Positions 5,590 through 61,416 of a stretch of DNA of 64,000 bases are shown here, piece by piece. Below the pieces are notes generated by a model. That model ran no database searches, was not told the origin of the DNA, and saw only the letters and a list, made by a program, of their open reading frames with translations. Origin of the DNA: an uncultured virus (IMG/VR IMGVR_UViG_3300035138_000088) (taxonomy: Duplodnaviria > Heunggongvirae > Uroviricota > Caudoviricetes). Position 1 is the stretch's first letter; the number at the start of each line of letters is the position of its first letter. The position numbers and the translations under genes were made by a program. The stretch lies in the IMG/VR virus record IMGVR_UViG_3300035138_000088; one strand, written 5' to 3'.

Positions 5590-5592
5590 GAA

Positions 5593-32620: not shown

Positions 32621-32992
32621 TTATTCTACTAGAGCATAAATCGAATCATCGCCACACATAAGAGTGCGACCAGTAGCTACAACAAAAATCTTCTTTTCGT
32701 CGAGTAATTTGAAAAGATGCTTTGATAAAGCCGAGCTGGTCGTCATAAATCCTCTTTTCCAGAACTCGTGGTACATGCTTGACTTTCGCATTTCTCTTTT
32801 ATCAAGGATTTCCAGTATAGCCTTGCGAGTCTTTTCATAGATGCTTAAGCCTTTTCCCCAGTCCTTATATTTTATAGAAAAACGGTTAAGAATGTAAACT
32901 GTTTCTGGACTACATTTAGGACAATATTTAGCTAGAAGATTTTCATCGTCTGTTTCGAAACCGCAATTTGGATTGCTACACTGAAACTTCAA
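32621..32992 (-). CDS. Zn-ribbon + winged-helix putative transcription regulator
   Basis: CSNPNC...CPKC then 'ILEIL...ALSKHLFKL.DE.KI'. Confidence 0.6.
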   Translation of the reverse strand: MKFQCSNPNCGFETDDENLLAKYCPKCSPETVYILNRFSIKYKDWGKGLSIYEKTRKAILEILDKREMRKSSMYHEFWKRGFMTTSSALSKHLFKLLDEKKIFVVATGRTLMCGDDSIYALVE

Positions 32993-33540
32993 TATTGCAC
33001 ACCTTCGTCACATACGTCTTCATCTGGAGCTTTGATTGTAACGATTTCATTAACGAAGTCAGCTAATTCCATGAGTTCTTCAGTAGCATGTCGTCCAGTC
33101 ATGACGATATTCATGTCTTGTGGTATATTATTCAAGAATTGCTTTACTTCATCAACGGTAAGTAACTTACAATAAACGGCTAAGTTTATTTCATCGAGAA
33201 TCAATAGGTCTGTTTTGTTGTCAGTGATATACCGCCAAGTTTCTATTAAAGCTTCTAACGCTTTTTCTTTGTCCCTTCGATTAAGACTATTAAGCCCATG
33301 CCAGCCTTTTCTACCGTACTGTTTGACCGTAAGATATTCTTTTATTTTTTCCATGAATTGAGCTTGATATTCTCCAGTATTTGTGTTCCACTTCATTAAT
33401 TGGAGCATAAAGACCTTTTTACCATGACCTATAGCTCTCAATGCCAAACCTAATGCGTTGGTAGTCTTACCAGCACCATCTCCAGTATAAAGATATATTT
33501 TACCCATTATCTTGTCATCTCCAATCTGTTTATCTTCCAT
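32989..33540 (-). CDS. btuR: ATP:cob(I)alamin adenosyltransferase (CobA/BtuR/CobO family)
   Basis: 'IYLYTGDGAGKTTNALGLALRAIGHG', 'Q.MK', 'LLILDEIN', 'MTGRHA..EL...AD.V.EI'; start likely MGKIY 33507. Confidence 0.9.
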   Translation of the reverse strand: MEDKQIGDDKIMGKIYLYTGDGAGKTTNALGLALRAIGHGKKVFMLQLMKWNTNTGEYQAQFMEKIKEYLTVKQYGRKGWHGLNSLNRRDKEKALEALIETWRYITDNKTDLLILDEINLAVYCKLLTVDEVKQFLNNIPQDMNIVMTGRHATEELMELADFVNEIVTIKAPDEDVCDEGVQY

Positions 33541-34633: not shown

Positions 34634-36010
34634 TCACCTATCATTGAGTATTTCCCTCGCTCTCTTTAACAGGTAAGTTCTCCTGTTTAATCTCGGACGT
34701 TCGACTACTTCATCTAGTAGGGTCTTCTGGATTTTCCCTATAAGGGGACCCGCTTCTATTCCTAAGTCCATAATGTCATAGCCGTTAATCCTTAAGTCTT
34801 TAATCCTGAATGGTTGTTTAGCCACTCTTACTTTTAGGAGCTTCACTTCGAATTTCCTTGTATTTTCGAAGGCTGACCTTACAAATGGACTACCGCATGC
34901 GATTATGTCTGCATTTGCATGAACTACAATGTCAGAAACCCAATCTGGATTTTCAAGCTTAGATAGGTAACGCCGAGCTCCTCTCGAAGTCATAGCCTTA
35001 TTGAAATGTACATCCATATGATGTTTGACCATGAATAGTATATACTTTGCTTCCTCATTAGAGAACTTGAATCGTTCGACGATATTCGATGCTATCTCTA
35101 CGCCATCTAAATGATGCTTGGGGAAGTATGGTTTGGAATCGTTAGCTTTACGTTTGCCGCAATCATGAATTAACCCGACGAATCTAAGCAGAGGCTTTGA
35201 GGATGGTATATGTCGAACCGTTTCGAACATATGGTACATAACCGTGTGCTCATGAGGTTTAGGCTGAACTACATGTTTCAATCGCGTAACTTCAGGAAGG
35301 AGTTGTTCCATTAAGCCAGTACCTTCCAAATAAGACAGAGCCCAGTGGGGGTTTTCGATAGCGAAAATCTTGAATAGTTCGTCTTTGATTCGCTCCATAG
35401 GAATCTCTACGATTAGATGAGATAAAGCCTTAGCCGCGTCATAAGTTTCTTTGTTTATTATGAAACCAAGTTTGCATGCGAAGCGACACATTCGAATCAT
35501 CCTTAGAGGGTCCTCTCTGAATCTTTCCTCTGGAACGCCTACTGTTCGAATTATATGATTGTCCAAGTCCCTGTAGCCTCTAAAGGGGTCAATAAGTTTG
35601 ACACCATTCAAAGCCATAGCGTTAACCGTAAAGTCTCTTCGGCTTAGGTCCTTATCTAGGCTATCCTCAAAAGTCACTTCGTCTGGATGTCTCCTGTCCG
35701 AATACTTTCCTTCAGACCTATAAGTTGTAATCTCTATTTTCTCTGGTCCTCTTCCATCATCATCGTCTATTATAATCGTCATAGTTCCAAACTTTTCCCC
35801 AGTAGGAATAGCTGTAAAAGGTGTACTTCGGAATACTTCGGCTACCTGATTTGGTCTAGCATTTGTTGCTATGTCAACGTCGCTGATTGGACGGTTAAGA
35901 AGCGAATCTCTAACTGCACCACCGACTATATAGGCTTCATAGCCAGCCTTGGTAAGTATGTTGCACAAACCAAAAGCTTTAATGAGTTTCAACATTTTGT
36001 GGTTCTCCAT
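34634..36010 (-). CDS. cca: class II tRNA nucleotidyltransferase (CCA-adding-like) with HD domain
   Basis: 'VGGAVRD.LL....DVDIAT', 'EITTYR', 'DL.RRDFTVNAMA', 'EDPLRMIR..RF', 'ERI..EL', 'HDCGK'. Confidence 0.9.
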   Translation of the reverse strand: MENHKMLKLIKAFGLCNILTKAGYEAYIVGGAVRDSLLNRPISDVDIATNARPNQVAEVFRSTPFTAIPTGEKFGTMTIIIDDDDGRGPEKIEITTYRSEGKYSDRRHPDEVTFEDSLDKDLSRRDFTVNAMALNGVKLIDPFRGYRDLDNHIIRTVGVPEERFREDPLRMIRMCRFACKLGFIINKETYDAAKALSHLIVEIPMERIKDELFKIFAIENPHWALSYLEGTGLMEQLLPEVTRLKHVVQPKPHEHTVMYHMFETVRHIPSSKPLLRFVGLIHDCGKRKANDSKPYFPKHHLDGVEIASNIVERFKFSNEEAKYILFMVKHHMDVHFNKAMTSRGARRYLSKLENPDWVSDIVVHANADIIACGSPFVRSAFENTRKFEVKLLKVRVAKQPFRIKDLRINGYDIMDLGIEAGPLIGKIQKTLLDEVVERPRLNRRTYLLKRAREILNDR

Positions 36011-36153: not shown

Positions 36154-36468
36154 CTATACGTTCTCTATTATTACTAAATGGGGCTTTCCATCATCGTCAA
36201 CCGTAGCCATATATGCCACGTTTTTTGTCGTATAAAGAGTAATAATTCTCATATGATTACTACCAAAAAACTTCTCCAAGATGGATTTTTCAGACTTCTC
36301 GACTTTTCTTACTCCAAATAAACCATCCAAGAGTTCTTTAAGTAAATCAATACATACATTATCTAAGTTCCACGCATCAACGAAGTCCCTTAAAGATGAA
36401 ACTTTCTTCTCTAATTCTCGTAATCTTTTCAATTCCAATTCTAAAGCCATTTCTTCTGCTGAAATCAT
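36154..36468 (-). CDS. hypothetical protein
   Basis: ATGA overlap with ligase. Confidence 0.65.
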   Translation of the reverse strand: MISAEEMALELELKRLRELEKKVSSLRDFVDAWNLDNVCIDLLKELLDGLFGVRKVEKSEKSILEKFFGSNHMRIITLYTTKNVAYMATVDDDGKPHLVIIENV

Positions 36469-37418
36469 TCCCCTTTCTCCTTGTCCTTGTCGGATTGAAG
36501 TCCCATGCTTAATCCTACTGCAAATTCAGTGGGGTTATCTTCCTCTTTTCTAGCTAAGTATTCTTGCCAGTAAGTGAATAACTTCTTAGATGGAGATGAA
36601 TAAAGATGTTTCTTGGCTTCCTTGCCGACATAAGCGGCTACTAAAGGCATGTCGTGGGCGGGGTCCCCAGTTAGTCCTTCGTCGGCATCAACTTTGGCTA
36701 TAGCACCGTAGACTTCGCTATCTGGCATAGATGGATACTCTGGATTACCCCTGTCTTTCTTTATCCTCTCTGGCTTAGGAATGTCAACTTTCACCTTAGC
36801 TTGAATGAGCCCACAGCCGTACTCTTTGTAATAACCGCGTATTTGTTCGGGAACTTTGTAGGCTTTAATAACCATACCTTCGAGACTGTTCGCTTTGCAG
36901 TATTTTAATGCTTCGTCAGCCATAGCCATTAGGCTTTTTTCTGACCTATGGCGAGTCTCAGCCCATAACTTCACTACTGGGATTCCATAATGGAAGGCTT
37001 GTTGATGAACAAGCACATAAGGAAGGAACTTGTCAGCGGCTTTGTCAAATATGTCAAAGATTACCAGCATATCGCGCTCATAGGTTTCCGCTCTTGTGAC
37101 GCTTAATCCTTTTCGACAAGCTTCGACATAAACCAGAAATTGAGGATTATCATTCAAAAGTTGTAAAACTTTGGGATATTCGTCAGTCCTTTTGACTAGA
37201 GCTTGCAAGTCTGAAGCGGCTTCCTCATTGTTTCGGCTATTGATGAGAATAAATTGTCTTTTCATGATAGAGTTTTCTACACTCTTCAATTGAATACCTA
37301 TATTTGAACCGTCTTTCTTCTCGGTCCAGAATAGACGTTGACCTAGCAAAATCCTCTTTGTTGGTTTCATTGAGGAAAGGATTGGTATGTGCGGGTATCG
37401 TTTGAATTCATCATCCAT
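36465..37418 (-). CDS. ATP-dependent RNA ligase (Rnl2-like)
   Basis: Motif I EKKDGSN, SRN, 'VE', 'FDI', 'EGMV', 'AKVK'. Confidence 0.75.
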   Translation of the reverse strand: MDDEFKRYPHIPILSSMKPTKRILLGQRLFWTEKKDGSNIGIQLKSVENSIMKRQFILINSRNNEEAASDLQALVKRTDEYPKVLQLLNDNPQFLVYVEACRKGLSVTRAETYERDMLVIFDIFDKAADKFLPYVLVHQQAFHYGIPVVKLWAETRHRSEKSLMAMADEALKYCKANSLEGMVIKAYKVPEQIRGYYKEYGCGLIQAKVKVDIPKPERIKKDRGNPEYPSMPDSEVYGAIAKVDADEGLTGDPAHDMPLVAAYVGKEAKKHLYSSPSKKLFTYWQEYLARKEEDNPTEFAVGLSMGLQSDKDKEKGE

Positions 37419-41856: not shown

Positions 41857-42156
41857 TTATGCAACAACTAAAGTGCCAAACTTGCCAACGTTAAGCTGGA
41901 TTTCGCCTTTGAATGCTGTTACATAACCGTTTTCGACTGTTATCTTATTGCCTACTTCCAGTTGGTCTATTTGCTCGTTCCACAATGTAAGCTTTATGCT
42001 TCCAGTCTCATCGGCGATTACAGCATCTGCTACGCTGTAAGTTTCGTCTTTGTATCTGGACTTAACTTGGCGGGTTTCGCCTTTTTCGACAACGCTTGCT
42101 TCGACTTTGACTCGTTTCATTCCGTTTCTTAGGTCTTTTATGTCCATTTTAATCAC
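41857..42156 (-). CDS. ssb: single-OB-fold ssDNA-binding protein (TACK-type SSB)
   Basis: 'IKDL..G', 'ADETGSIKLTLWNEQ', 'ENGYV..FKGEIQLNVG'. Confidence 0.88.
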   Translation of the reverse strand: MIKMDIKDLRNGMKRVKVEASVVEKGETRQVKSRYKDETYSVADAVIADETGSIKLTLWNEQIDQLEVGNKITVENGYVTAFKGEIQLNVGKFGTLVVA

Positions 42157-42157
42157 G

Positions 42158-44089
42158 TTACTTTGATTTACTTAGGAGATTTATGATTGTGTCTTTCTCC
42201 AAAGTTTCTGGAGATAAATCAATGTCTATCTCTACATCTTCAGATTTTTCTGTGACTATCTCTGCTCCAGCTAGTTCCAATAGTTCATTTAAGCTGATTG
42301 CGTTTGAGTAGAATGTGAATAGGTACTTTCTACTATGAACCGTGTAATCGTTTCTATATGATGATATTGAGTTGCCTATGTCTGATTCGCTGAAGTAGAA
42401 TCTGCATTCGTCTGGAGTAGTCACGATTAAGCCGAGAATCTTTTGTTTTGTGTCTATCTTTGACTTTGCAATGCATGCTACATCGTTTGGGTTAACCATG
42501 TAGTTTTGTTCGAGCGTGTTAAGTTTCCGTTTAGCTACGATTATTTTGTATGGAACAGGGACTCTTTCGCTGAAATTGAAGTAGTTAACCATCATTATCA
42601 ATGAGTTAGGGTCCTGTTTTGCGACGTAGAATAGCTCTGTAGCTCCTTTATGGGCTTCAGTCATGTCACCAGAGAATAGGATTGTAGCTCCACCACTTCG
42701 GTAGTTAGCATCCCAGCCGTACTTTGTTCCTTCAGCGTTTATTACTGATAGGTCCAAGTCTATTCTGTGTTCTTTCACGTCTTCCCAGTACACGCCGAAT
42801 ATCATGTCTTTTGGAACTACGACGTAGCTACCAGATGGGAAGTTTCCAGTGAACTGTTTTTCTGTAGCTGGAAGAGCATAAACAAGGTTTTCTGGGATGT
42901 AAATATGCTTGCCTTCAACATTAGGTCTCATGTCTTCAACGATAGAGCTTAGTACCTGAGTTAGTATCCCGTTTAGTTTAGCCGCCTTGTTTCTCGGGAA
43001 ATCGAAAGATTTAGCGTATGATTTTCCATTTCGTATTTTGTAAAGGATTGAATCTACATCTTTAGTTCTGAAGTTGAGAGCATAAGCTAGTCTTATTTTC
43101 CTGAAAGTATTCACTCTAGCCAATTCTTTGTCTAGCTGTGAAGCAATGATTGGCACACCGCTCTTTATCATGCCAGTTAGCATGTTTAGGTAGTCTTCCC
43201 TCATTGGTTTGTGATGTGTGTCAGCGAGTCGGCGGATTTTGTTGATAATTACTTTCATCTGGGTATTAGTTCTGAATGCCAAGAATAATGGCTTAAATCT
43301 GAAGAATATTCTGGCTAATGGTACAAGGCTGTGTTTCTCCTTGTATCGTAAGAAGTATTTGAGAGCATTCACGTTCTGGGTTTCTTTAATTTTCGCTATT
43401 GTCCCAGCATTCTTGATTAGCAAAGTTTTGTTTGTAGTCTTGTAGACTAGGAATCTTAAGAATTCTATTGGATTCTCTGGAACCAAACCTAAGTAGTCGT
43501 AAAGAATGGCTTTTGTCTCTTTGTTTCTTATTCGTTCTATGTCGCCTTCGTTAATACCAACGAATAATGCAACGTCAATAACGTCCTCTAATGTCTCTTC
43601 CTTCAAGGCTATACCTCGGCTGAGTAGAGTAAGCAATTTCTCCTTAAGTTCGGCTTTAGTGAGCCCTTTGATTATTGTGAGGGTAATTCCGCCTTCCAAA
43701 TCTGGAATCTCAAGCGATTCGCTTGGAATGAAAACAGTGTTTTCGCTGTACACTCCTAACCTTTCGAATCCGTAAGTTGTGATGTAATGCAATATTTGCT
43801 CTATCACCAACTGGAATAAAGGAGTATCTCTTACTTTCGCCCACGACTTATGGAACGTACTGTTCATCTGTTGTGGCGTAAGTCCAAACTCTTCTGAAGC
43901 GACAGCTATCAAATTGTTCAATTCGCTTTCGTTATAATTAGCAACTACGTTTGGAGTAAAAATGAATCCTCTACGGATAGTTGCAGACGAAATATTTGCA
44001 TAATCAATCATCGCATCTCTAGGAGAGTTGTTTATTTCAGTTCCTTTCCGAATTGGAACTGCTTTGAATAGTCTCATTGTTGATTTCAT
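42158..44089 (-). CDS. large protein with C-terminal TerD-like domain
   Basis: 'W......IDLDLS', 'GWD', 'FSGDMT.A..GATE', 'VNYFN'; helical N-terminal two-thirds. Confidence 0.6.
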   Translation of the reverse strand: MKSTMRLFKAVPIRKGTEINNSPRDAMIDYANISSATIRRGFIFTPNVVANYNESELNNLIAVASEEFGLTPQQMNSTFHKSWAKVRDTPLFQLVIEQILHYITTYGFERLGVYSENTVFIPSESLEIPDLEGGITLTIIKGLTKAELKEKLLTLLSRGIALKEETLEDVIDVALFVGINEGDIERIRNKETKAILYDYLGLVPENPIEFLRFLVYKTTNKTLLIKNAGTIAKIKETQNVNALKYFLRYKEKHSLVPLARIFFRFKPLFLAFRTNTQMKVIINKIRRLADTHHKPMREDYLNMLTGMIKSGVPIIASQLDKELARVNTFRKIRLAYALNFRTKDVDSILYKIRNGKSYAKSFDFPRNKAAKLNGILTQVLSSIVEDMRPNVEGKHIYIPENLVYALPATEKQFTGNFPSGSYVVVPKDMIFGVYWEDVKEHRIDLDLSVINAEGTKYGWDANYRSGGATILFSGDMTEAHKGATELFYVAKQDPNSLIMMVNYFNFSERVPVPYKIIVAKRKLNTLEQNYMVNPNDVACIAKSKIDTKQKILGLIVTTPDECRFYFSESDIGNSISSYRNDYTVHSRKYLFTFYSNAISLNELLELAGAEIVTEKSEDVEIDIDLSPETLEKDTIINLLSKSK

Positions 44090-44107
44090 TTTTTGTTTTC
44101 ACCTTTT

Positions 44108-44267
44108 AAATGAGATAAGGCGAGGGGTATATAGTCTCTTTACCAAGGGAGTTTTTTATAGGAACCCCATGTGCCTCTTGGCGCGTGATTAAGGCGGGAA
44201 GTATATCCAACATGATAGGTTTTTAATAGGAACTTCCTATGCCTCTATTCCGTTATCCATCTCATTT
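44108..44267 (-). ncRNA. 5' leader with two tandem covarying hairpin motifs (44117-44177 and 44191-44245)
   Basis: GAGGC..GGGGU/GGAAGU-UCCUAU.AAAAAC...AUAU-ACCCC/ACUUCC..GCCUU; enclosed by aaatgagat/atctcattt; TATA ~44295. Confidence 0.75.
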
Positions 44268-44359
44268 TATCTTTACATTTACTGTGCTTCCGTTCCTAAT
44301 AAACCTTTCTACATTTTTATACGAAAAGTTTATTTAGAAGCATGCATATCATTATGTAG

Positions 44360-44659
44360 TTGATAAATATGGTTCGCGTACTCTTTAAAGATGAAAAGAA
44401 AGTTGTTGTAGAGCTAACCAAAACAAAGGTTTGCATTGTAAATGAGAGAGGAATTACACTGCGCCTAAAAACAAAAGATGGCTGGGAAACCAAAAACTTT
44501 GACTTCAAAGATTTGCTATTAATGAACAACGTCATCAACCAGATAACCATACATAAATCAAAGCAACTACAAAGAGCTAGAAAGAAAATTAAGAAATTAA
44601 AAGAGGAAAAACTTGAAGAGCTCTACGTAGACCCTATGCCAGAAAGAGCTAACTGTTAA
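44360..44659 (+). CDS. basic hypothetical protein, isolated + strand gene
   Basis: Own TATA aaaagtttatttag ~44325. Confidence 0.65.
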   Translation: MINMVRVLFKDEKKVVVELTKTKVCIVNERGITLRLKTKDGWETKNFDFKDLLLMNNVINQITIHKSKQLQRARKKIKKLKEEKLEELYVDPMPERANC

Positions 44660-50999: not shown

Positions 51000-51770
51000 C
51001 TAATATTTGAACTTTATATGACCATTTACGTTACCATGTGCATCTCTGGTTACCATCCAAGGTTTATCTTTGTCAATCTCTGCATAATGACCTATCCCAT
51101 TTATGTCGCCATCGAGCCACACGTCATATCCAGCATGATGAGCTCTAATACAATAACTGAAGTCTTCTGATGCCTTCAATTTTTCTGTCCATATTACAGG
51201 ATGGAAATTCACTCGTTTATCTTGAATTATTCGTCTACTCAAGCATATGCATCCAGCAGAAGTAACGTAGACTTTTTGTAGTCCTTTACATTTAGATTTA
51301 AACCAAAGTTTATCTTTGCCTTTTCGTTTCCATTTTGAAGCCAAAAACGTTCCTTCTGGGTAACGCCTTAAATATGGAGCTCCTATTACATCTTTGTGTC
51401 TTCGCGTAATCTGGGTTACGAAGTCTGGTGGATAAATTACTATATCATCATCTATGAATATCGCATAGTTAGGATTTAGTTTTCTTGCATACTCAAGTAA
51501 AACCTGTCTGGCTATGCCGATTCCTTCGTATGGATTTCCAGCCTTTTCTATTAGGTCCTCTTTAAACCATAATCGAATCAGTTTTTTGGGACCTTTAAAG
51601 TCTTGGATAACTTGTAACGTATCATCCGTACTGTTATTTTCCAAGAAAACATATAGGTCTGGCTGTGGGTAAAGCTCAATAAGTTTTCCCAAGCAATCTC
51701 GAAGGAAAGTAGCGTTATTATATGTCGGAATTAAGAATATTACTTTGTTTTTTGTTTCCATTTTTTCCAT
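51000..51770 (-). CDS. GT-A (family 2) glycosyltransferase
   Basis: 'IPTYN', 'ENNSTDDT', 'FIDDD', 'SEDF..C'. Confidence 0.85.
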   Translation of the reverse strand: MEKMETKNKVIFLIPTYNNATFLRDCLGKLIELYPQPDLYVFLENNSTDDTLQVIQDFKGPKKLIRLWFKEDLIEKAGNPYEGIGIARQVLLEYARKLNPNYAIFIDDDIVIYPPDFVTQITRRHKDVIGAPYLRRYPEGTFLASKWKRKGKDKLWFKSKCKGLQKVYVTSAGCICLSRRIIQDKRVNFHPVIWTEKLKASEDFSYCIRAHHAGYDVWLDGDINGIGHYAEIDKDKPWMVTRDAHGNVNGHIKFKY

Positions 51771-52075
51771 CTCATTTTATCATAAATAGCATATATATCA
51801 TCAATAAGATAATTAATTTTTCTTATATCCAAAAAATTAATTACATGTAATAGTTCATGGAACAAAACATCAAACTCTTCAAATGTTGGATGATTATATC
51901 GAAGAAGTTTAGTGTTTAGGATAATTGCTACCTTACTTGTTCTTAAGTTCTTAAGACATACCCCACGCAATATTCCATTTTTATATCTTCTTTTTCTTCC
52001 TCTACTTAATTCCTCAATTCTTTTATTGTCCCACCACATCACTTCTATAATTTTACGTTTACATCCATTTTTCAA
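51740..52075 (-). CDS. small HExxH metallopeptidase-like protein
   Basis: 'VLFHELLH'; AT-rich. Confidence 0.5.
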   Translation of the reverse strand: MKNGCKRKIIEVMWWDNKRIEELSRGRKRRYKNGILRGVCLKNLRTSKVAIILNTKLLRYNHPTFEEFDVLFHELLHVINFLDIRKINYLIDDIYAIYDKMRWKKWKQKTK

Positions 52076-54602
52076 GTTTTGTTTCCCCTAATATGCTGTC
52101 ATATTCTATGCCTAATGCATCAAGCAATTGTTCAAACGTGCTTTTAAGCATTTCGTGGTATTTTGTTACTGCTACATCTTGTTTGGTCGCCCATTGTAAT
52201 GGCATAACATTTACTTCCTCTGGAATATTTTTATCTCTAAAAACGAATGTTTTGTCAACAATTTTGATGAAAGATACCACATCGCCTTTCCTCAAAACTA
52301 TTCCATCATTCATAAGCATCCGAGCCGCCTTAACATGTTGTGGAGTTGATTTTTCGTACATGTTCAAGTTTTTACCTAACGTCATATGAAATGCCATTTC
52401 TCGAAGGTCGAAGTCTCGCATCTTGATTTTTTGGTAAATGTTACGAACTACCTTTTTGACTCCCTTCTTTACTGCTTCTACTTCCTCTGGAGTTTCAGCT
52501 TTAGCAAGATATTTCTTGGTTACATTGAATGCTTCCTTGATTACTATCGGGACATGCTTCTTTTTGCCAGTCATTCCTTTAACGTCAACGTTACCATCTA
52601 TCGTAACCCCAACGTAATTTTTCTTGCGTGAACTTAAGCAGACATACCGATATTCTTTGTCAACTTCAAGGTCTAATTGTAGCTCTTTCGTGCTCCAATC
52701 TATCAAAGCTTTTACTTGTTCTGGAGTTGGCTTATGCGCGAAAACGCTGTCAGTGTCTCCATACAAGATTCTCATTCCTAAAGCTTTAGATTTTTCAATC
52801 GTTAGTTCAGTAGAGTTACGAGCTATAGATGCGATTGATTCAGCTACTGGCGGACAATACAAATCAAAGTTTACGTCACCAAATACGCCGTAGCTGGCGT
52901 TCAAAATAACCTTCATGGCTTGTTCTACTACGGCATAAAATGGGTCCTTTTTGAGTTTCTTGTAATGTTCAACACGCAAATCTCTAAGCATAGATATTAT
53001 TTCGCTTTCCATAGCGCGGACTTTTTTGCAAACCCAATGGGTTGTCTGGGGAACTTTATTTGATTTGCATTCTGGATGGTTACAGTTTATGCTTGCATAA
53101 CCGAGATTCCAGACTTTTTGGACTGTCGGATAGAGGCTTGCAAAATCAATGACTTTAACTATGAAGTGGATTCCAGCTATAGGCTCTACGACTATTGCGC
53201 CTTTGTATTTTTTGCCTTTTATCATGGCTGATGTGCATGCTTTGCCTTTAATGGTTAATATGTCTTCCTTGTTCGGTATAAGATAGTTTCGGTTTCTATG
53301 TTCATAGAATAGGACGTTACGAATCCATTGTCCTATAGCATTACGGTTCATGTCTTCCATAGTCATCGAAGCTAACCGCATAATTATCATCATAAGCCGC
53401 ATAACAAGGTCTTCGTTGTACGACGTAAGCTGTAGAGTCACGTCACCATCGCCCACGTTATATTTGGCTAATTGCGTGTAGGTCCAATCATGCATTTTGT
53501 CAGCTAAGTTTCCTTCTGGACCAATCTTGACTTTTCCTTCTCCCAATAGGGCTTTACCGATTTCATCTAGTGAAATATTTTTGTATTTTTGTTTAAAAGC
53601 GTAATTTCTTAATGAACGATTGAAGAATAGTCTATAAAGGTCTATATGGATTGAGCCAGTGATTTTAACGCATCTTCGTCCAAGCTGAATTGGAATATCA
53701 TTTTTTTCTATACCTAGTTTTACTGCTCTGTTATAGAGGTAAGTTAAGTCGAAATTATCACCGTTAAATGTTATAATGAATGGATACTCAAGGATACCAG
53801 CAAAAATCGCCAGAAGTAAATCCTTTTCGGAATCATAAAACTCTATGTTTGCATCTACGTCTTCATTTCCAACCTCAACGCCTTTACGGAGAAGTATAAG
53901 TTCCCGTCTTACTCCATTGGAACCAATGAGGCAACATGAAACCACTGGAAACTCTGCTTTGTTTGCATCTGGAACTTTCGTTCGTTTTTCACCTAACACT
54001 TCGATGTCTATAGCGACGCGCTTAAAACTTGGTATGTCATACTCAAAAAATCTTACGAATCTACTCAGATTTCCAGAATGTAATCCAATTTTCTTGATTA
54101 GTTCAGCTACTTTTTCTTCAGCTTTCTGATTTACTACCCTTTTCAGTTTTCCATTAATGAGCTTGTATGGCATTCCAACCTCTAATTTTTCATCGAAAAT
54201 ATAGCAATAAAGATACGGAATTTTAGCTTCCCAAACTTTGGCTTCTTCACCTAAATACTTAGGAATAATATCTCTTATGCTTAGGTCAGCCTTTTTATTG
54301 CCTATAAGGGAAGGGTCATCAACGATTATTTTAGTTACCATAACCTCTTTCTCTAGTAGAGCATCCCATTTCTTGATTATTCTAACTTGGGCGTTATCGA
54401 AAACTTTAGTTTTAGTTTTTAGCTCATCTAACTCTACTGGTGATACGTTAGTAAAACAATATGGTCTGTGAGACTTTTTGCTCATGATATAATAAAGTTT
54501 TTCGGTTTCTGGAGAATAAAATATTAATTTGTTTACCTTATGATGACCGTTATAGAATCCATCAACTAGATACACTTCTAGATTCTCTGGAAGCAAATTC
54601 AC
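52059..54602 (-). CDS. polB: family B DNA polymerase, archaeal PolB1-like
   Basis: Exo 'IDIEV', 'FNGDNFD'; pol 'DFASLYP', 'KVILNASYG', 'YGDTDS', 'KKNY.G', 'KGMTGKK'; 'C.H.EC..N.VP.T.HWVC' insert. Confidence 0.95.
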   Translation of the reverse strand: MNLLPENLEVYLVDGFYNGHHKVNKLIFYSPETEKLYYIMSKKSHRPYCFTNVSPVELDELKTKTKVFDNAQVRIIKKWDALLEKEVMVTKIIVDDPSLIGNKKADLSIRDIIPKYLGEEAKVWEAKIPYLYCYIFDEKLEVGMPYKLINGKLKRVVNQKAEEKVAELIKKIGLHSGNLSRFVRFFEYDIPSFKRVAIDIEVLGEKRTKVPDANKAEFPVVSCCLIGSNGVRRELILLRKGVEVGNEDVDANIEFYDSEKDLLLAIFAGILEYPFIITFNGDNFDLTYLYNRAVKLGIEKNDIPIQLGRRCVKITGSIHIDLYRLFFNRSLRNYAFKQKYKNISLDEIGKALLGEGKVKIGPEGNLADKMHDWTYTQLAKYNVGDGDVTLQLTSYNEDLVMRLMMIIMRLASMTMEDMNRNAIGQWIRNVLFYEHRNRNYLIPNKEDILTIKGKACTSAMIKGKKYKGAIVVEPIAGIHFIVKVIDFASLYPTVQKVWNLGYASINCNHPECKSNKVPQTTHWVCKKVRAMESEIISMLRDLRVEHYKKLKKDPFYAVVEQAMKVILNASYGVFGDVNFDLYCPPVAESIASIARNSTELTIEKSKALGMRILYGDTDSVFAHKPTPEQVKALIDWSTKELQLDLEVDKEYRYVCLSSRKKNYVGVTIDGNVDVKGMTGKKKHVPIVIKEAFNVTKKYLAKAETPEEVEAVKKGVKKVVRNIYQKIKMRDFDLREMAFHMTLGKNLNMYEKSTPQHVKAARMLMNDGIVLRKGDVVSFIKIVDKTFVFRDKNIPEEVNVMPLQWATKQDVAVTKYHEMLKSTFEQLLDALGIEYDSILGETKLEKWM

Positions 54603-54603
54603 A

Positions 54604-55695
54604 TTATTTTACTCCAATGTTATCCTTTATGATACCAAAGTCCAAACTAGCTCTAAGCCGCATGGTTGCAAGTTTGACCTCATATTCTTTTATGAGCTCA
54701 CTAGGATTATCGTCTATCTTTCTAATTAAGCTTTCTATGACGCTTGCCATTAGCGGGTCATTAACTTCAACGTTGTATTCTGAGAGTCCAAGCTTATCCA
54801 TAAGCATTGTATTCTTGTCAACAGTTGAAATTGAAATCGTTGGAATCTTCAAAGCTATTGGTATAACTTGTGAATGACCACGCATTCCTATAACCATCTT
54901 AGCGTAACTGTAATAATTTAATCCGTTTTTCAACATTTTATTCCAATCTAGAATTTGTACCATTTCAGGATTCCAATCAACGTAATTGAAGCACATACCA
55001 TCTGAAGGAACATGTTTTGCAAAAAAAACCTTTATTCCAATTCCAGTTAAAAAGTCAACTATATGCTTTATTTTAGCACAAAATTGTTCTGGTGGAACTT
55101 TGTTATTAGTGTATCTATGAATTATTCCGTCTCCAGATATGTTTAATATTGCATAGTCCCCTTTTATAAGCCTACTGGTTTCATCGCGTTTAACCCAATA
55201 AGCTGGGTCTGGACTTTCTCTTGGATTAAATCCAATTTCTTCAAGTTTTTCTTTTGTTCCATCAGCTCTAACACTGAAGAACCTTGAGTTTTTACGTATC
55301 TCAATTAAATTGGCTAATTGACACCGATAATCCATCTTAGCTAGGTTTGTAGAGCGGGGAGCATTATACCCTATTCCATATACAACATAAGGTACTTTCA
55401 GTTTTTTGTACCAAGATACTGGCTTAAACCACCATAAAGGAGAAGCATCCCCAAGCCAACCACCGCCGCCAATAAAGATTAAATCATAATCATCTGGATT
55501 GATTCTTTTTAATATTTCTTCAAAGGTCAAGTCTCTCTTTGGAGCATCATTATCGTAAGCCATAGTGTCTTTATCATGTATATTCTCTACTGGAATATGG
55601 AACATTTCAGCCATGATGTTTTTTGCACCCATAGCAAGCAATTTATCACCATAATTACATGTACCATATCCTAAATGGAAGTGAAATATCTTCAT
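54604..55695 (-). CDS. polysaccharide pyruvyl transferase family protein
   Basis: 'NYGD', 'IGGGG', 'GIG', 'SVR', 'PDPA', 'MRGHS'. Confidence 0.85.
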   Translation of the reverse strand: MKIFHFHLGYGTCNYGDKLLAMGAKNIMAEMFHIPVENIHDKDTMAYDNDAPKRDLTFEEILKRINPDDYDLIFIGGGGWLGDASPLWWFKPVSWYKKLKVPYVVYGIGYNAPRSTNLAKMDYRCQLANLIEIRKNSRFFSVRADGTKEKLEEIGFNPRESPDPAYWVKRDETSRLIKGDYAILNISGDGIIHRYTNNKVPPEQFCAKIKHIVDFLTGIGIKVFFAKHVPSDGMCFNYVDWNPEMVQILDWNKMLKNGLNYYSYAKMVIGMRGHSQVIPIALKIPTISISTVDKNTMLMDKLGLSEYNVEVNDPLMASVIESLIRKIDDNPSELIKEYEVKLATMRLRASLDFGIIKDNIGVK

Positions 55696-56138
55696 ATTTT
55701 TAATTTCAGCTCCAACTTCTTTCTGGGTCTATCGGTAAATTCGTTTGTTACTATAAATCCGAATCTCTCATATAAGGTTATCGCTTTCTCATTGTCCGCG
55801 TAAGTTGAAAGGTGAATTTCATTACAACCCATATTTTTGGCATATTTGATTAATTCGCACATTAACTTTGTTCCATATCCTCTGCCGACAACAGCCGATA
55901 CTATACCAAGTCTACATGTATGTTCTGTAAAGTTATAAAGATGACCAAACGCTACTATTGTATAGCCTTCTATAAGTGCAAGCTTAATTGAGCTAAAATC
56001 AGACAAGATTCCATTTACTATTTTGGTATCAAACTTTCTTCCGTAATAATGCCATAAATCTAAGGCTTTAGGAGTTAGCCATTGAAGGAAATCCAGTAAT
56101 AATCTTTCATCTTCTACCGTTAAAACTTTAATGTACAT
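55692..56138 (-). CDS. GNAT acetyltransferase
   Basis: 'GRGYGTKLM', 'N.KAI.LYERFGF'. Confidence 0.85.
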   Translation of the reverse strand: MYIKVLTVEDERLLLDFLQWLTPKALDLWHYYGRKFDTKIVNGILSDFSSIKLALIEGYTIVAFGHLYNFTEHTCRLGIVSAVVGRGYGTKLMCELIKYAKNMGCNEIHLSTYADNEKAITLYERFGFIVTNEFTDRPRKKLELKLKI

Positions 56139-56736
56139 CTTTGTTTTCTTCCTTTAAAGAAAATTCCCAGTATTTAAAGAACGTCGCCATAGCTGAAAAA
56201 TAACGATTAGAAGCTGAAGGTTTAATTGCCGTAATTAAAACTCCATCTCCCCAAAAAGCATAATTCGCTACCTTTTCGGTTACAAGCTTCTTGAGTTCGA
56301 CTATGTGGTAACCGTTTCTAAAGAATTTTTCTATACAAGCCTTAAATAGCGCAAGTGAATGAACCTCTAAAACATACTCATTTACCATAGAAAATATTTT
56401 ATCTGGAACAGTAAAGAGATGCCGTTCTCCACCGTCAAGGTCGCATTTTATCACGTCTGGCTTATCTTCTAAGATTATCTTAGAGATTTCGTTTGGAGTT
56501 TTTATGAATAGAAAAATTGGTTTCATATTCTTGAGCCATGCTGAGTTCTCAAGCAGTTTCTCGTAGCGTTCTTTGTTACCTTCTACAGCTATCACCTGAA
56601 TAGCTCCCTTCTCTAAGAAGAATTCAGCCGAACTTCCGTAATCTGCACCCAAATCTAGTACTTTCTTTCCAGCATAATCTATCAAACCATATTCCTTAGA
56701 GTAATCTTCGTCTCCAATAAACGGTTTTAATCTCAT
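56128..56736 (-). CDS. FkbM-like SAM-dependent methyltransferase
   Basis: 'VLDLGADYG', 'AVEG', 'IKCDLDGGE', 'EVH'. Confidence 0.8.
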   Translation of the reverse strand: MRLKPFIGDEDYSKEYGLIDYAGKKVLDLGADYGSSAEFFLEKGAIQVIAVEGNKERYEKLLENSAWLKNMKPIFLFIKTPNEISKIILEDKPDVIKCDLDGGERHLFTVPDKIFSMVNEYVLEVHSLALFKACIEKFFRNGYHIVELKKLVTEKVANYAFWGDGVLITAIKPSASNRYFSAMATFFKYWEFSLKEENKDVH

Positions 56737-57755
56737 AATAAAGCAACTCCATTGTCTCTTCTCACGGTCTTTTTGAATGTTTTCAGATTCTCATAACCTA
56801 TGTATGGAACATAATAATAGTCTGCATACCATAAGGCTATAAATTTCTTTGGTATTGTAGGATATGATTTAACACCATCAAGCCAGTTATCTATTAGGAT
56901 TTCTGGGCTATTCACTCCACCCATAGCGCGTACTATTTGAGCCCCAGTAAATCTTGCATTGAACTCAAAAATCTTGATTTCTCCACCAGAACGGAATCCT
57001 TGAACTGATAAGGGACCTACAACGCCAAGTTTGCCAACTATTTTAGCTATCATGAGTTTAAAATCCAAGTCATCTGTTTCTCCGCCATGAATTGTTTTGT
57101 AACTCATACCAAACTTTTTGACTGATTCGGCGCATGTGATTGAAAGTATTTCACCGTCCTTGGCTACTGTAGCCATCGCAGATAATTCTGTCCCATCGAG
57201 CTTTTCTTGAATTATATTTTCGAATCCATGCTCCTTGGAATATTGAATCATATTTTGGAGTTGGAACTGATTTGAACAATCAAAAACCATTCTGCTTCCA
57301 AACCCGCCACGCGGCTTAGTTATGACTGGGAAAGGATTAACATATTTTACATCGCTACCTTTCCATGTTTTCGGATAAGGAAACTTGTTTTCCCTGAGCC
57401 AGTTAGCCAATGCAAATTTGTCCCGTGCCAATTTTAAAACATTGTCTGGCGGCAAAAGGATTTCAGCATCAACCTCATTTTTTCGGAATGAAAGAATTTC
57501 GAGTGGAATATCATGAGCCACTATTATTAAGTCAATATCTTCTTTGGCTACTATTTTGTTTATATCGTCAATCCATTCGCTTACTTCTTTTCTAATCAAA
57601 TAGCCTCTATCTCCGACATATGCTCCTATAAGTAATGGGTCTATGTCAGACGTGATTATGTTATACTTTTGCTTTTTGATATTAGCTAGTCTTAAACATT
57701 TTATGGTTGATAAAGATGCTTGACCAGAACTTCCAACTATCAAAATATTTCTCAT
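56733..57755 (-). CDS. ATP-grasp ligase (CPSase-like, glycan-cluster type)
   Basis: 'DKF', 'P.PKT', 'FP...KPR.G.GS', 'QE.L.G.E', 'FEFNARF.G'. Confidence 0.85.
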   Translation of the reverse strand: MRNILIVGSSGQASLSTIKCLRLANIKKQKYNIITSDIDPLLIGAYVGDRGYLIRKEVSEWIDDINKIVAKEDIDLIIVAHDIPLEILSFRKNEVDAEILLPPDNVLKLARDKFALANWLRENKFPYPKTWKGSDVKYVNPFPVITKPRGGFGSRMVFDCSNQFQLQNMIQYSKEHGFENIIQEKLDGTELSAMATVAKDGEILSITCAESVKKFGMSYKTIHGGETDDLDFKLMIAKIVGKLGVVGPLSVQGFRSGGEIKIFEFNARFTGAQIVRAMGGVNSPEILIDNWLDGVKSYPTIPKKFIALWYADYYYVPYIGYENLKTFKKTVRRDNGVALL

Positions 57756-57756
57756 T

Positions 57757-58989
57757 TTATCCTACCTCTACATATTCCCCATCATCAACTGGTTTTACAA
57801 TATGAGTTCCTTTAACATGTTTTAATTCAAACTTTTTGAGACAGTGTGAACAAGTTACCACATTACAAAATTCCTTTTCAAAATCAGATTTAAGTTCAGT
57901 TATTTTTCTTTTACTCATTTCAAATAAGAAATCGTCTACTGATGTGGAATGACTTTTTATACTATAAAGTTGAAAGAGTTGTAAAGTATTCTTTCGTCGT
58001 CTACCCTGTTTATTATATTGTCTTATAGCTTCCAAACAAGCTTCATGATAGGCTTCTCTGGATATTTCTGGAGACCAAAGCTTCAAAGCAGTTTTTCTAG
58101 CTTCTTTACCCATTTCTTTAGCTAAATCATGGTCTTCAAGTAAGTTGTTAACATAATTAATCATTTCTGTTGGATTGGTGCTTTTAAATCCATTAACGCC
58201 ATGCTCTATTATTCTATCCATCTCCCAGCTTGCATAAACAACTGGTGGCATACCACTCATCATTGCTTCTATTAATCCATCCGTTAAGATTGTTCCAGTA
58301 GCACATTCCAAGTAACATCTATTTAGCTTGTATGCTACAATCATCTCTTCGAATGTAGTAATAGGGGTTCCGAGCCTAAAATCCAATCCATATCTTTTTG
58401 AGTGCGTAAAAGGATGAATTTTATCCCAAATAAATCCGCCGCGTTCCATGTATCTTGCATCATTCTGATTAGGAATACCTATTCGTTCACATGTCCACAT
58501 AGCTTTCTTTACTTCTCCAGTCCAGCCATTATAGATTTCTGGGTCTTGACTCCACGCAATTTTCCCTTTCATTCCATAAAATTCTTTTTGACTTTCGGCT
58601 GAGTAAATACATGGATAATCTCCTATAAGTTTGCTACCATGTTTAGCTAACAGTTCTTTAACTACAGTGTTACATAAGTGGAATTTCCAAACTATAGGTA
58701 TGTCTTGAAGGTATTTTTCCCATACTTCAATTTGTCCAGCGTCTGGAATTAAAATAGCAACGTCGTAATCATCAACATCAATTTCCTTCATACTTTCCCC
58801 GAGCAATTTAACGTTAACTGGCTTTGGTTTTATACATCTTAACCATCTCCAATAGCCATTTGATATTGATAAATCACCTTTAGGTTCTCTTCCGATAATC
58901 CTATTCGTAACATAAAACGTATCATTTGGCATTGATGAAGCCAGTCCAAACATCCAACCGTAATGTGGAATACAAGTTAAAATTTTCAT
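57757..58989 (-). CDS. GT-B (family 4) glycosyltransferase
   Basis: 'LIEAMMSGMP.V', 'I.HG.NG', 'MG..AR'. Confidence 0.8.
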   Translation of the reverse strand: MKILTCIPHYGWMFGLASSMPNDTFYVTNRIIGREPKGDLSISNGYWRWLRCIKPKPVNVKLLGESMKEIDVDDYDVAILIPDAGQIEVWEKYLQDIPIVWKFHLCNTVVKELLAKHGSKLIGDYPCIYSAESQKEFYGMKGKIAWSQDPEIYNGWTGEVKKAMWTCERIGIPNQNDARYMERGGFIWDKIHPFTHSKRYGLDFRLGTPITTFEEMIVAYKLNRCYLECATGTILTDGLIEAMMSGMPPVVYASWEMDRIIEHGVNGFKSTNPTEMINYVNNLLEDHDLAKEMGKEARKTALKLWSPEISREAYHEACLEAIRQYNKQGRRRKNTLQLFQLYSIKSHSTSVDDFLFEMSKRKITELKSDFEKEFCNVVTCSHCLKKFELKHVKGTHIVKPVDDGEYVEVG

Positions 58990-60023
58990 TTTATTGACTC
59001 CACCATTTCTTTGAATTGTAAGCCAGATGTAATCCAATTAAACTTGTCCGCGTAAGCTCTAGCATTATTTTCTTGTTCTTTCCGCAACTTTTCATCGTTA
59101 ATATATTTACATAAAGTTTTCTTGAATTCTTTTCTATTTGTCATAACTATGGCTTTATGTTTTGCATATTCTGGGAAACATTCTAAATTTGAAGTTATAA
59201 CAGTTTTGCCGTGTCCAAGCATATAAGCCAATGATGATTCGCCGATTTTATGCCAATACGTGACCACTCCTAAATCAGCCGCCGACATCCATACGTCTGT
59301 TTCTTCATCGGAAATTAATGGACGAGAAAAGTGTACTCTGGAACTCATACCAAATGTGCTGGCATAATCCAACAAATATTGCTGGGACTCATGAGAGCAC
59401 GGCGTTCCACAAAACAAGGCTTCAGTTCCGTACATTCCAGAAATCCATTTCAACAAGTCGTCATGTCCTTTGGATTTACCATAATAGCCCCATGCTATAA
59501 CCGAATTTGGAAGTCTTTGACCTACAGTTTTTCTGCACTCGGCTTTGTTAAGTTCTACGCCTTGAGTACAAGGAAATCTCCATACTGTCATTTTATCATG
59601 ATATTTCTTTCCACTTTTGCCGAGTGCATTAATCCATTTTTGTCTGTAAAAATCCTGAGATAAAGTAACAAACTCAGAATTCTTTAATATTGTATGTTTT
59701 TGTTCTTCAGTTCTAGGTTCTTCGTTCCAGTTGACACAAAAAATGATTTTCTTTGTTGGGTCAGAAAACACGCTTTCTAGGTCTCTATGAAAAATATAGT
59801 CCCAATAAGATAGGATAATCTTGTTGCTTCGTGCCATCTCTAACCCAAGACGAATCTCATTCTCATTATATTTCTGTCTAATATCGTAAAGGTTGACGAA
59901 ATCAACGTCTAACCCCACAGCTTCTAATCCTTGAATGAAGTTTTTTGGTGGTGGATAGCCCTGAAGTAAACAACCATTCTCGTGGGGAATCCAGTAGCCC
60001 ATAACAGTTACGGTTTCACCCAT
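58986..60023 (-). CDS. GT-B (family 4) glycosyltransferase
   Basis: 'WGY....KG.D.L', 'MSAAD', 'GK.VITS'. Confidence 0.75.
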   Translation of the reverse strand: MGETVTVMGYWIPHENGCLLQGYPPPKNFIQGLEAVGLDVDFVNLYDIRQKYNENEIRLGLEMARSNKIILSYWDYIFHRDLESVFSDPTKKIIFCVNWNEEPRTEEQKHTILKNSEFVTLSQDFYRQKWINALGKSGKKYHDKMTVWRFPCTQGVELNKAECRKTVGQRLPNSVIAWGYYGKSKGHDDLLKWISGMYGTEALFCGTPCSHESQQYLLDYASTFGMSSRVHFSRPLISDEETDVWMSAADLGVVTYWHKIGESSLAYMLGHGKTVITSNLECFPEYAKHKAIVMTNRKEFKKTLCKYINDEKLRKEQENNARAYADKFNWITSGLQFKEMVESIK

Positions 60024-60481
60024 TCTCTGATGTCAACTCCGTTTATTCCATTAGCTCTCAATCGTTCAAGGACATATAGCCTATCTTCGACGAACATATC
60101 TATTCCTAAGCTTTTTGCTGTCTGAATCTTGAATTCAAGCTCTGATGTTTGAATTGTTTCCCTGAAACAAATATGTTTAAAGCCAATCTTTCTTAATAAA
60201 TGTTCCGCCTTTTTACTTTTAGTGGTTCTTCCAGAAATGATGACTGAATCTCGTGGAATCTTGTCTAAAACTTTCCCATTCAAATTAAATGGGAGCCTAG
60301 CTATAATAAACACTATAGCTATTTTTAGTGACCATAACCCAGCTTTACTAAATGGGTCATTAGGTCCTGTGTAACGCATAAAGATTTCAAACGGCTTTGG
60401 GAGCTTATTTAAAACGCCGTCAAAATCAAATGCAAGTTTTATTCTTCCCAACTCCACTTCTTTCCGTGCTCGTTGTACCAA
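60008..60481 (-). CDS. HAD-superfamily phosphatase-like protein
   Basis: 'FDFDGV', 'ISGR', K, 'FVED'. Confidence 0.75.
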   Translation of the reverse strand: MVQRARKEVELGRIKLAFDFDGVLNKLPKPFEIFMRYTGPNDPFSKAGLWSLKIAIVFIIARLPFNLNGKVLDKIPRDSVIISGRTTKSKKAEHLLRKIGFKHICFRETIQTSELEFKIQTAKSLGIDMFVEDRLYVLERLRANGINGVDIREWVKP

Positions 60482-61416
60482 TCAACAGTTCTTTTTAGTC
60501 CTTCCTCGAAAGAAACGAATTCTGTCCCGCCAGTGAGTTTATTGAATAGCGTATTATCGCATAATAATTCATCTACATCGAACGGTCTCAGTTTCTTTTT
60601 GTCTATTATGATTTCATAGTCGTTTTTACCCATAACCTTGGCTATTGTGTCAGCAATTTCTTTCACTGACCAATTTACTCCTCTACCAAAGTTTACGACA
60701 GTTCCTTCCAAGTTTGGTGTTTCCATAAGTTTAATGTGACCCTGTGTTGCGTCGTTAACGAAAGTAAAATCTCGTTTCGCGTAGATGTTGCCTAGACTTA
60801 AAGTGTTTCCTCTGCTGAATTGCGTGATTATCTCTGGGATAATATAAGGCTGGGCTTCTCTTGGTCCAAAACAATTGAATTGTCTTAGAATTATCACTGG
60901 AATGTTTCGTTCTTTCCAGAGGATGAAACAAGCTCTATCGCCAGCGAACTTGGCTAACGCATAAATCGAGTGTGGTGTAGTTGGATGGGATTCGCTCATT
61001 GGATTAACTCTTGCAGTACCATAGACTTCGGAAGTAGAATAATATATTATCCTTTTAACTCTAGCTTTTTGGCACGACTTGAGTACGTGTATTGTTCCAA
61101 GCGTGTTTGTTTCAAACATTATCTCGGGATTCTGGAATCCTTTTGGTATGAAAGGTTCAGCCGCTAGATGGAAACAATAGTCAATTTTGTCACGTTTCAA
61201 TATTTCATCTAGAAGCTCATGGTTCTTTATGTTACCAACGACAAGATTGGCTTTCGTTCCGTCTAGATGAAAACGTTTTCCAGCGCAAAGGTTATCTAAT
61301 ACTGTAACTTCACAATTTATCTTCTCTAATTGGCGAACTAAGGATGAACCTATGAATCCAGCACCGCCAGTCACTAGAACATTCGAACCTTCTACTTTAT
61401 ATGTTTGGTTTTTCAT
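60439..61416 (-). CDS. NAD-dependent nucleotide-sugar epimerase/dehydratase
   Basis: 'TGGAGFIGS', 'HLAA', 'STSEVYG', YxxxK, 'RDFTFV.D'. Confidence 0.92.
   Translation of the reverse strand: MKNQTYKVEGSNVLVTGGAGFIGSSLVRQLEKINCEVTVLDNLCAGKRFHLDGTKANLVVGNIKNHELLDEILKRDKIDYCFHLAAEPFIPKGFQNPEIMFETNTLGTIHVLKSCQKARVKRIIYYSTSEVYGTARVNPMSESHPTTPHSIYALAKFAGDRACFILWKERNIPVIILRQFNCFGPREAQPYIIPEIITQFSRGNTLSLGNIYAKRDFTFVNDATQGHIKLMETPNLEGTVVNFGRGVNWSVKEIADTIAKVMGKNDYEIIIDKKKLRPFDVDELLCDNTLFNKLTGGTEFVSFEEGLKRTVDWYNEHGKKWSWEE

Follow-up and report, generated by a model that had tools for sequence, protein, structure and literature searches.

The window analysed here is a 64,000-nucleotide (nt) stretch of an uncultured virus of the Caudoviricetes (IMG/VR record IMGVR_UViG_3300035138_000088), and on its minus strand lies a gene for a 643-residue protein that is preceded by two tandem copies of a structured RNA unit and followed by a gene for an Ssb-like OB protein (Table 1). 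Each unit consists of a constant part, termed the handle, and a variable loop or head. An initial annotation made from the sequence alone had singled out the two units, the gene and the ssb gene behind it, and all were recovered as described, the second unit with a U.U mismatch at the base of its inner stem.

Unit 1 has a 5-bp outer stem P1 (GAGGC/GCCUU), an AUA/C internal loop and a 6-bp inner stem P2 (GGAAGU/ACUUCC), inside which sits a 29-nt A/U-rich loop opening with UCCUAUUAAAAA. In unit 2 the inner stem is compensated (GGGGU/ACCCC) apart from the single mismatch mentioned above, and the loop is 35 nt long. Both window units share UUCCUAUWAAAAAC, followed by a variable middle and AUAU before the 3' strand of P2. 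Unit 1, a seed member of the covariance model R1 whose consensus is common to about 400 matches elsewhere, scored 62.0 bits against that model (E 1.4e-16), and unit 2 scored 48.4 bits (E 8.4e-13). The end of unit 2 lies 27 nt upstream of the ATG, within the range usual among relatives. The exact loop motif occurred only twice in the window, and looser matches were at chance level (6 seen, 9.6 expected).

The handle consensus was NN-GGC / A-N-A / RGNNGU / UCCUAUWAAAA ... AWU / ACNNCY / C / GCC-NN. In an initial alignment of 29 units from 13 sources, 99.1% of cells were paired versus 76.8% in shuffles, and changes on both sides were seen in ten of the eleven pairs, which was reached by none of 500 shuffles. 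Nine of these eleven pairs had been pre-selected by a regular expression; the two outermost, free of that selection, were paired in 27/29 and 29/29 units. Among the 150 best R1 matches, aligned by fitting to the model in a way that favours pairing, 97.6% of cells paired. One inner pair was occupied by all four Watson-Crick types (AU 64, GC 38, UA 25, CG 23), GU or UG types appeared in six of the eleven pairs, and G.U pairs were confined to the strand of the gene. The residues A6, U15-U16-C17-C18-U19, U155 and A156 were invariant in 150/150 matches, and the 5' strand read G-G-C-A-N-A-R-G with the A at its fourth position likewise present in all. The two loop ends showed no pairing with each other beyond expectation over 15 x 10 position pairs. 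The compensatory inner stem, conserved loop start and variable middle first noticed in the window were borne out. Folding energy was unremarkable (201 nt, z -1.37, 20/200 shuffles equally good); judged by alignment the units are more than chance, and it is the comparative evidence that is decisive, not the folding energy.

Several known motifs were compared with the handle. K-turn and T-loop readings were dropped on inspection, as P2 opens with covarying Watson-Crick pairs, and they are also disfavoured by the C and U found at the positions equivalent to R57 and A58. A bulge-helix-bulge, as in archaeal-type tRNA introns, has two 3-nt bulges on opposite strands with a 4-bp helix between them. 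The handle does not fit this, since its internal loop has 3 nt against 1 nt and its helix of 6 bp leads into a large loop. Nor is the array CRISPR-like, as the stems of units at one and the same locus already differ by compensatory changes, and each unit surrounds its own insert instead of separating spacers as CRISPR repeats do.

The relatives of the window protein first collected came from three named phages (about 30% identity), of which two are cyanophages, and from 12 IMG/VR contigs (47-56%). Nearly all carried two to four copies of the unit in the 350 nt upstream, with the same architecture and different inner stems. The R1 search of the first 16 sources (167 kb) gave 51 matches, that of 80 further viral loci gave 220 with at least one in 78/80, and that of 80 loci from bacterial and archaeal genome assemblies gave 148 in 72/80, every one of them on the strand of the gene. 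The two viral loci with no match begin within the gene and lack upstream DNA, and of the eight genome loci with no R1 match five carry a permuted form of the unit that is invisible to R1 and two have no upstream DNA. The pairing of handle and gene was kept down to about 30% protein identity, in S-CRM01, S-CBWM1 and Phass-1. Copy number ranged from one to seven per locus, so the expectation of the initial annotation that homologues would carry the motif in variable numbers held. No protein neighbour was conserved in this way, as each of 16 window neighbours occurred in only zero to two of the 80 viral loci, and the RNA array is the sole constant companion of the gene in these loci.

The distance from the end of the last unit to the start codon was 8-40 nt in most of 60 loci. 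Arrays were also found downstream of the gene, as in loci L089 (four units), L050 (two), L091 and L004, and in Phass-1 (L003; 6021-6485, 6494-6932) the array lies 1.3-1.7 kb downstream with a transfer-messenger RNA (tmRNA) gene directly after it (Rfam, 77.9 bits). Units placed downstream of the gene, or at a distance from it, are not tied to its leader, which argues for action in trans. Some units abut tRNA genes; in S-CRM01 (L002) a tRNA ends at 2516 and a unit follows at 2517, and in L010 the corresponding positions are 2333 and 2335. tRNA genes were present within 3 kb in 13/58 viral loci. Unannotated handle RNAs also lie between annotated tRNA genes of the published cyanophages S-CBWM1 (L001, 449-503) and S-CRM01 (L002, 2517-2970 and 4829-4880), the latter having six units around g174.

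The cargo held by the handle fell into four kinds among the 150 best matches. Short, unstructured A/U-rich loops were the most frequent (108/150) and include both window units, while 26 units held a stable hairpin, often with a tetraloop, six a weak hairpin and ten a tRNA-like body. Several of the hairpin heads resemble anticodon arms with 7-nt loops (CUUUUAA twice, CUUUCAA, CUUGAAA and CUGAUUA) and others resemble lone T arms. In whole-sequence folds of ten long units the handle was followed by an anticodon-like stem, a T arm with GGUUCGANUCC, a loop-closed acceptor stem, UA and a D arm. The permuted form mentioned above is a tRNA-shaped RNA with normal ends, in some cases with an encoded CCA, in which the handle replaces the anticodon loop and P1 is closed by a small loop. 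Thirty-eight instances were found by regular expression, each with its D arm upstream and its T arm downstream, and the Rfam tRNA model matched at 46-64 bits across spans of 109-130 nt. At one locus (L088, 2628-2747) the handle surrounds a complete tRNA in normal order (2654-2729), which ends in ACCA and was assigned a four-base anticodon, CUAU, by ARAGORN; this tRNA could be quadruplet-decoding or non-decoding.

The protein family comprised at least 1803 clusters at 90% identity among 8000 scored candidates, with 1633 representatives at 50% identity, 1103 of these below 1e-30, and was found in 290 viral contigs and 266 genome loci. By these matches the protein and RNA families span phages, bacteria and archaeal metagenome bins. 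None of 120 proteins listed had a Pfam domain or a name beyond "hypothetical protein". The window protein had no match in Pfam or PHROGs, and a sequence search against the Protein Data Bank (PDB) gave nothing. At E <= 1, no Pfam family matched more than three of 68 members; TROVE was not among the 25 families listed, and unlisted families matched at most one member. PADLOC returned single-member noise only. The 643-residue protein divides into an alpha-helical domain at the N terminus (about residues 1-395) and a beta-rich domain at the C terminus, the latter carrying the motifs DLDLS, GWD and FSGD..GAxE. The N-terminal 400 residues or so modelled well as a helical domain, with a predicted local distance difference test score (pLDDT) of 88.7 and a predicted template modelling score of 0.82. 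Foldseek of this domain against the PDB gave nothing at E <= 0.001, and a wide VIA-align search gave a best Z of 7.3 over residues 298-398 only, one helical hairpin region; no Ro60 chain, whose fold is a ring of HEAT-like repeats, was among the matches listed. The full-length model was mediocre (pLDDT 66.6). Its only confident fold match was Klebsiella TerD (2kxt; Foldseek probability 0.99, E 0.024, 173 columns), in a part of the model with pLDDT of about 50-70, other fold rows for the whole protein having low template modelling (TM) scores. The helical region reported by the initial annotation is present in the models, and its TerD-like label has support at the level of the fold only, with no Pfam TerD match (0/68). 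In hhalign against four Chryseobacterium TerD proteins the probability was 4.2% (E 0.0098, 143 columns) with DLDLS, GWD and SGD..E aligned to the TerD motifs. On the model, the C-terminal domain looks TerD-like.

Two members of the family appear to have interrupted genes. In L184 (Ktedonobacter racemifer, 3001-5828) the gene match covers 2.8 kb rather than 1.9 kb and contains an inner open reading frame (ORF; 3248-4297) with TnpB/OrfB_IS605 domains, so that the gene appears to be split by an IS605-type insertion. In L146, a viral contig, the gene is in two pieces (4174-5124 and 5963-7060) about 840 bp apart, which suggests an insertion or intervening element.

The gene neighbourhoods include RNA-processing functions. 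RtcB was directly upstream in 27 Chryseobacterium loci in the order RtcB, units and gene, and in Chryseobacterium sp. KCF3-3 the full order was a WYL regulator on the opposite strand, a HopJ-like gene, RtcB, three units and the gene. RtcB was also present in L201, where it is accompanied by an RNase T-like exonuclease, in L192 and in two viral contigs. In a Bythopirellula locus (L209, 4969-7865) a PcfJ-like gene and a canonical Ro60 (TROVE plus vWA) lie downstream on the opposite strand, the Ro60 gene 1.8 kb away, and the two kinds of module can thus share one locus. By analogy, these RtcB, Ro60 and exonuclease contexts match the neighbourhood of Ro60 and Y RNAs.

We consider it probable, at roughly 60%, that the protein and the handle RNAs form a ribonucleoprotein (RNP) that works like Ro60 with its Y RNAs, in RNA repair or tRNA surveillance. 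Each of the two units would encode a small stable RNA, about 55-60 nt long and made from the same strand as the 643-residue gene, either excised from its 5' leader or transcribed separately. Each RNA would have a constant handle, made up of P1, the A-N-A/C internal loop, P2 and the single-stranded UUCCUAUWAAAA...AWU, and a variable head. The neighbouring protein would recognise the handle sequence-specifically to form the particle. Heads in relatives include hairpins, look-alikes of an anticodon arm or a T arm, and whole tRNA-like bodies. Through such heads the particle might expose tRNA-like or other RNA surfaces to enzymes of RNA processing or RNA repair, or to host nucleases that cut tRNA, in the way that Y RNAs serve Ro60. 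Since the last handle is usually so close to the start codon, the protein may in addition repress its own translation.

Several observations weigh against this reading. The protein has no recognisable RNA-binding domain and showed no likeness to Ro60, hhalign against the Ro60 of L209 (6681-7865) giving a probability of 0.4% and none of the 68 members matching TROVE. Neither window unit has a tRNA-like head, their loops lacking a T-loop, and tRNA-like heads are a minority among relatives (12/68 viral and 2/65 genome loci). The RtcB link rests largely on one genus. Within the window, a purely cis-regulatory role would account just as well for the position of the units beside the start codon. The viral and genome loci were picked for encoding the protein, and in the converse test, a collection-wide scan with an 18-nt handle pattern, the gene was within 4 kb in only 37 of 73 loci. 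About 15 of the remaining loci had no model match and were probably chance matches. All five near-complete or large phage records with distant handles encode the protein elsewhere, tens to hundreds of kb away, and these count in favour of action in trans; 0/5 small fragments with true handles show the gene, such fragments being only 5-20% complete. What is observed is the RNA structure with its conservation and strand, its co-occurrence with the gene, and the RtcB, Ro60 and exonuclease neighbourhoods; binding by the protein, stability of the RNAs and a role in RNA repair or counter-defence are what we infer.

The analogy with Ro/TROVE and Y RNA was the best of the three options offered by the initial annotation, and some heads are indeed tRNA mimics of the YrlA type, but the protein is not detectably a TROVE protein. 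Bacterial YrlA and YrlB occur in rsr-yrlBA-rtcBA loci and the Ro60-binding motif of the Y RNA 5' strand is given as GNCGAAN0-1G, according to Chen et al. 2014 (PMC4201824). As with Y RNAs, several different small RNAs are arranged in tandem and co-oriented beside one large protein gene, a constant stem module formed from the 5' and 3' ends is joined to a variable module, RtcB is a recurrent neighbour, and the system is present in phages and in cells. Some heads also resemble YrlA in that a T arm is followed by a closed acceptor stem and then by a D arm, the permuted order of YrlA itself. Unlike Ro60, the handle-linked protein has no detectable TROVE or vWA domain, with no vWA Pfam match in the window protein or the 68 members, and its beta-rich C-terminal half is TerD-like. 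The handle has GGC-A-N-A-RG with an invariant A where YrlA has GNCGAA, together with an invariant UUCCU. Among relatives of the window units, the best score on YrlA (RF02553) was that of an S-CRM01 unit (L002, 2622-2736) at 35.9 bits over the full model, against a gathering threshold of 69 and through the tRNA-like part only, and no Y RNA family matched window positions 43900-44500 at E <= 10. tRNA mimics are a minority here, against one in every species reported by Chen et al., and the handle RNAs have in addition a second circular permutation with its ends at the acceptor stem. No feature tested places the module in the Ro60 or YrlA families, and by these comparisons the system is built from parts non-homologous to Ro60 and Y RNA.

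Other known systems share single features. For the tRNA-embedded class only, and as an analogy, tmRNA with SmpB likewise has a tRNA-like body lacking a working anticodon arm and a dedicated protein partner, and the Phass-1 array is directly followed by a tmRNA gene; it differs in that the handle system has no mRNA-like reading frame and no SmpB-like protein, and a tRNA part is lacking from the majority of units. The C-terminal domain superposes on TerD (PF02342) and its DLDLS, GWD and SGD...E motifs align in hhalign with the calcium-site motifs of TerD, whereas the low hhalign probability and missing Pfam matches noted above, the fusion to a helical domain of 400 residues that has no close match among solved folds and the lack of Ter operon genes nearby set it apart. 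The MXAN_6230/SCO0854 RING proteins (NF041916) gave weak matches in 56/68 members (best E 3.3e-9) over about 70 residues in the TerD-like motif region, and an ESM Atlas model aligned over 530 residues with a TM score of 0.62 by query. The window protein scored 17.7 bits against a cut-off of 600, however, and has no RING domain. These matches point to a distant cellular relative, a family for which no function was described in the literature searched.

The rival explanations were, in descending order of likelihood, a cis operator, processing or splicing with RtcB, a guide array, and a riboswitch or DNA element. It is unlikely that the handles are solely 5' untranslated region operators through which the protein represses its own translation, with no functional free RNAs. 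Such a leader would account for the placement of the last unit shortly before the start codon, for the end of window unit 2 so near the Shine-Dalgarno-like AAGGUG (Table 1), and for the co-orientation of every unit with the gene. It would not account for the downstream arrays described above (L089, L050, L091, L004 and Phass-1), for arrays distant from the gene in 5/5 large phage records, for units embedded in tRNA operons or for as many as seven copies per locus, and tRNA-like heads and CCA-ended tRNA forms would make no sense in an operator.

That tRNA-shaped RNAs carry the handle in their anticodon loop suggests instead that the handle might be a cleavage signal, with the protein as an endonuclease excising it from tRNA precursors (an anticodon-loop intron or permuted tRNA genes) and RtcB joining the ends. 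Permuted tRNA-like heads, some with 7-bp acceptor stems and long intervening hairpins, adjacent RtcB of the tRNA-splicing ligase family in several lineages and the CCA-adding enzyme encoded in the window are consistent with this explanation, which we nevertheless regard as improbable. The linker between anticodon stem and handle varies from 1 to 8 nt and removal of the handle leaves no consistent anticodon loop, tetraloops close several of the acceptor stems, and most units, including both in the window, have no tRNA part. The protein showed neither a nuclease fold nor a nuclease motif (Pfam on 68 members, fold searches), and the handle departs from the bulge-helix-bulge in both loop and helix as noted above.

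A guide-like array, proposed in the initial annotation, would use the variable loops as antisense guides steering the protein to nucleic-acid targets, and a constant scaffold with a variable insert, in tandem copies and adjoining a large unnamed protein, has that outward form. This is very unlikely, as the two window inserts have no complementary site beyond chance in the 64-kb window, inserts of the stable-hairpin and tRNA-like classes (26 and 10 of 150) and several anticodon-arm look-alikes are structured, and short loops have a variable part of no more than about 10-15 nt. The tandem riboswitch also put forward there, or an element acting as DNA (a replication origin, or sites for a recombinase or repressor), would explain two similar structured elements in a 5' region and is scarcely credible, since the loops vary freely and nothing outside the handle is conserved as a ligand-pocket-like core, some genomes have units downstream of the gene or far from any regulated gene, and compensatory changes, G.U pairs and a 100% strand bias with the gene reflect selection on an RNA helix of one strand. 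The DNA motif GAAGTTCCTAT appears to resemble half of an FRT site, a point in favour of a DNA element.

A bolder and tentative idea is that the system is a third, non-homologous class of tRNA-linked RNP beside Ro60 with Y RNA and tmRNA with SmpB. A TerD-like protein would grip a universal handle grafted onto tRNA bodies in both circular permutations, and in the CCA-ended tRNAs with the handle for an anticodon loop the protein would replace the anticodon arm. Such particles might act on translation or tRNA repair, or serve as decoys for host anticodon nucleases.

The protein and RNA families are without a name in Pfam, PHROGs, NCBIfam, PADLOC, Rfam 15 or the literature searched, and the Rfam check called for by the initial annotation matched no family. 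A 2016 study by Burroughs and Aravind reportedly covers Ro/TROVE with Y RNA and SPFH/Band-7 proteins with tRNA-like RNA and may bear on novelty. The families together comprise more than 1600 protein clusters at 50% identity and hundreds of covarying RNA members. If they form an RNP, this would be a second, independent solution to the job of Ro60 and Y RNA, would account for unannotated RNAs inside phage tRNA clusters and would provide a natural modular RNA scaffold with one handle, many cargoes and two permutations. The purpose of tRNA mimics in RNA repair and phage-host conflict becomes testable, with cultivable carriers in Chryseobacterium species and in cyanophage S-CRM01 with its Synechococcus host.

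Table 1. Features of the 643-residue protein locus and related genes in the 64,000-nt window.
Feature	Position	Strand	Description
RNA unit 1	44245-44191	-	GAGGC-AUA-GGAAGU-UCCUAUUAAAAAC...AUAU-ACUUCC-C-GCCUU
RNA unit 2	44177-44117	-	GAGGC-ACA-UGGGGU-UCCUAUAAAAAAC...AUAU-ACCCCU-C-GCCUU
Gene for 643-residue protein	42158-44089	-	ATG ORF; both units in its 220-nt upstream region
Shine-Dalgarno-like AAGGUG	44100-44105	-	10 nt before ATG, 11 nt after unit 2; putative, function inferred from position alone
5' arm of 9-bp enclosing helix	44259-44267	-	AAAUGAGAU; read from sequence
3' arm of 9-bp enclosing helix	44108-44116	-	AUCUCAUUU; read from sequence
Degenerate partial inverted copy of the loop-proximal part of a unit	44292-44322	+	GUUCCUAAUAAA...UAUAC; no P1 or P2; just upstream of unit 1
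Ssb-like OB gene	41857-42156		Downstream of 643-residue gene; PF21473, E 5.7e-16
RNA ligase	36465-37418	same as 643-residue gene	Protein-library scan
CCA-adding enzyme	34634-36010	same as 643-residue gene	Protein-library scan

The 9-bp helix that the initial annotation had drawn around both units is present in the window (Table 1) but is not conserved, as array flanks in 60 related loci pair no better than shuffles (median z -0.05; 6/60 below -2), and it is therefore probably local or due to chance. The partial inverted copy upstream of unit 1 scored 7.9 bits against R1 with filters off (E 0.17, model positions 13-46 only) and is probably a decayed copy. A scan for promoter and terminator consensus sequences gave no minus-strand site between the gene and 44400. 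The window has no tRNA gene and no Rfam match at gathering scores, and no TROVE protein was present among the 78 window ORFs scanned. The RNA ligase and CCA-adding enzyme lie 5-9 kb downstream of the 643-residue gene.

With genes for PolB, ribonucleotide reductase, a portal-like protein and sugar biosynthesis, the window appears to come from a large virus. At 47-57% identity, the nearest relatives of the window protein are on contigs L174-L181, which were binned with Promethearchaeota (Asgard), Pacearchaeota, Nanoarchaeota and Borrarchaeum metagenome-assembled genomes, and the Ssb-like OB protein is of archaeal type; the host of the window virus may be an archaeon. Other minus-strand genes include a corrinoid adenosyltransferase of the BtuR/CobO family (32989-33540), a KaiC-like ATPase (14989-15903) and a pyrimidine-dimer DNA glycosylase (468-842). 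A long run of sugar-modification genes (51000-63718, minus strand) adjoins the PolB gene and includes glycosyltransferases, a GDP-mannose dehydratase-like protein, a DegT aminotransferase, a pyruvyl transferase, an ATP-grasp protein and an FtsJ-like methyltransferase.

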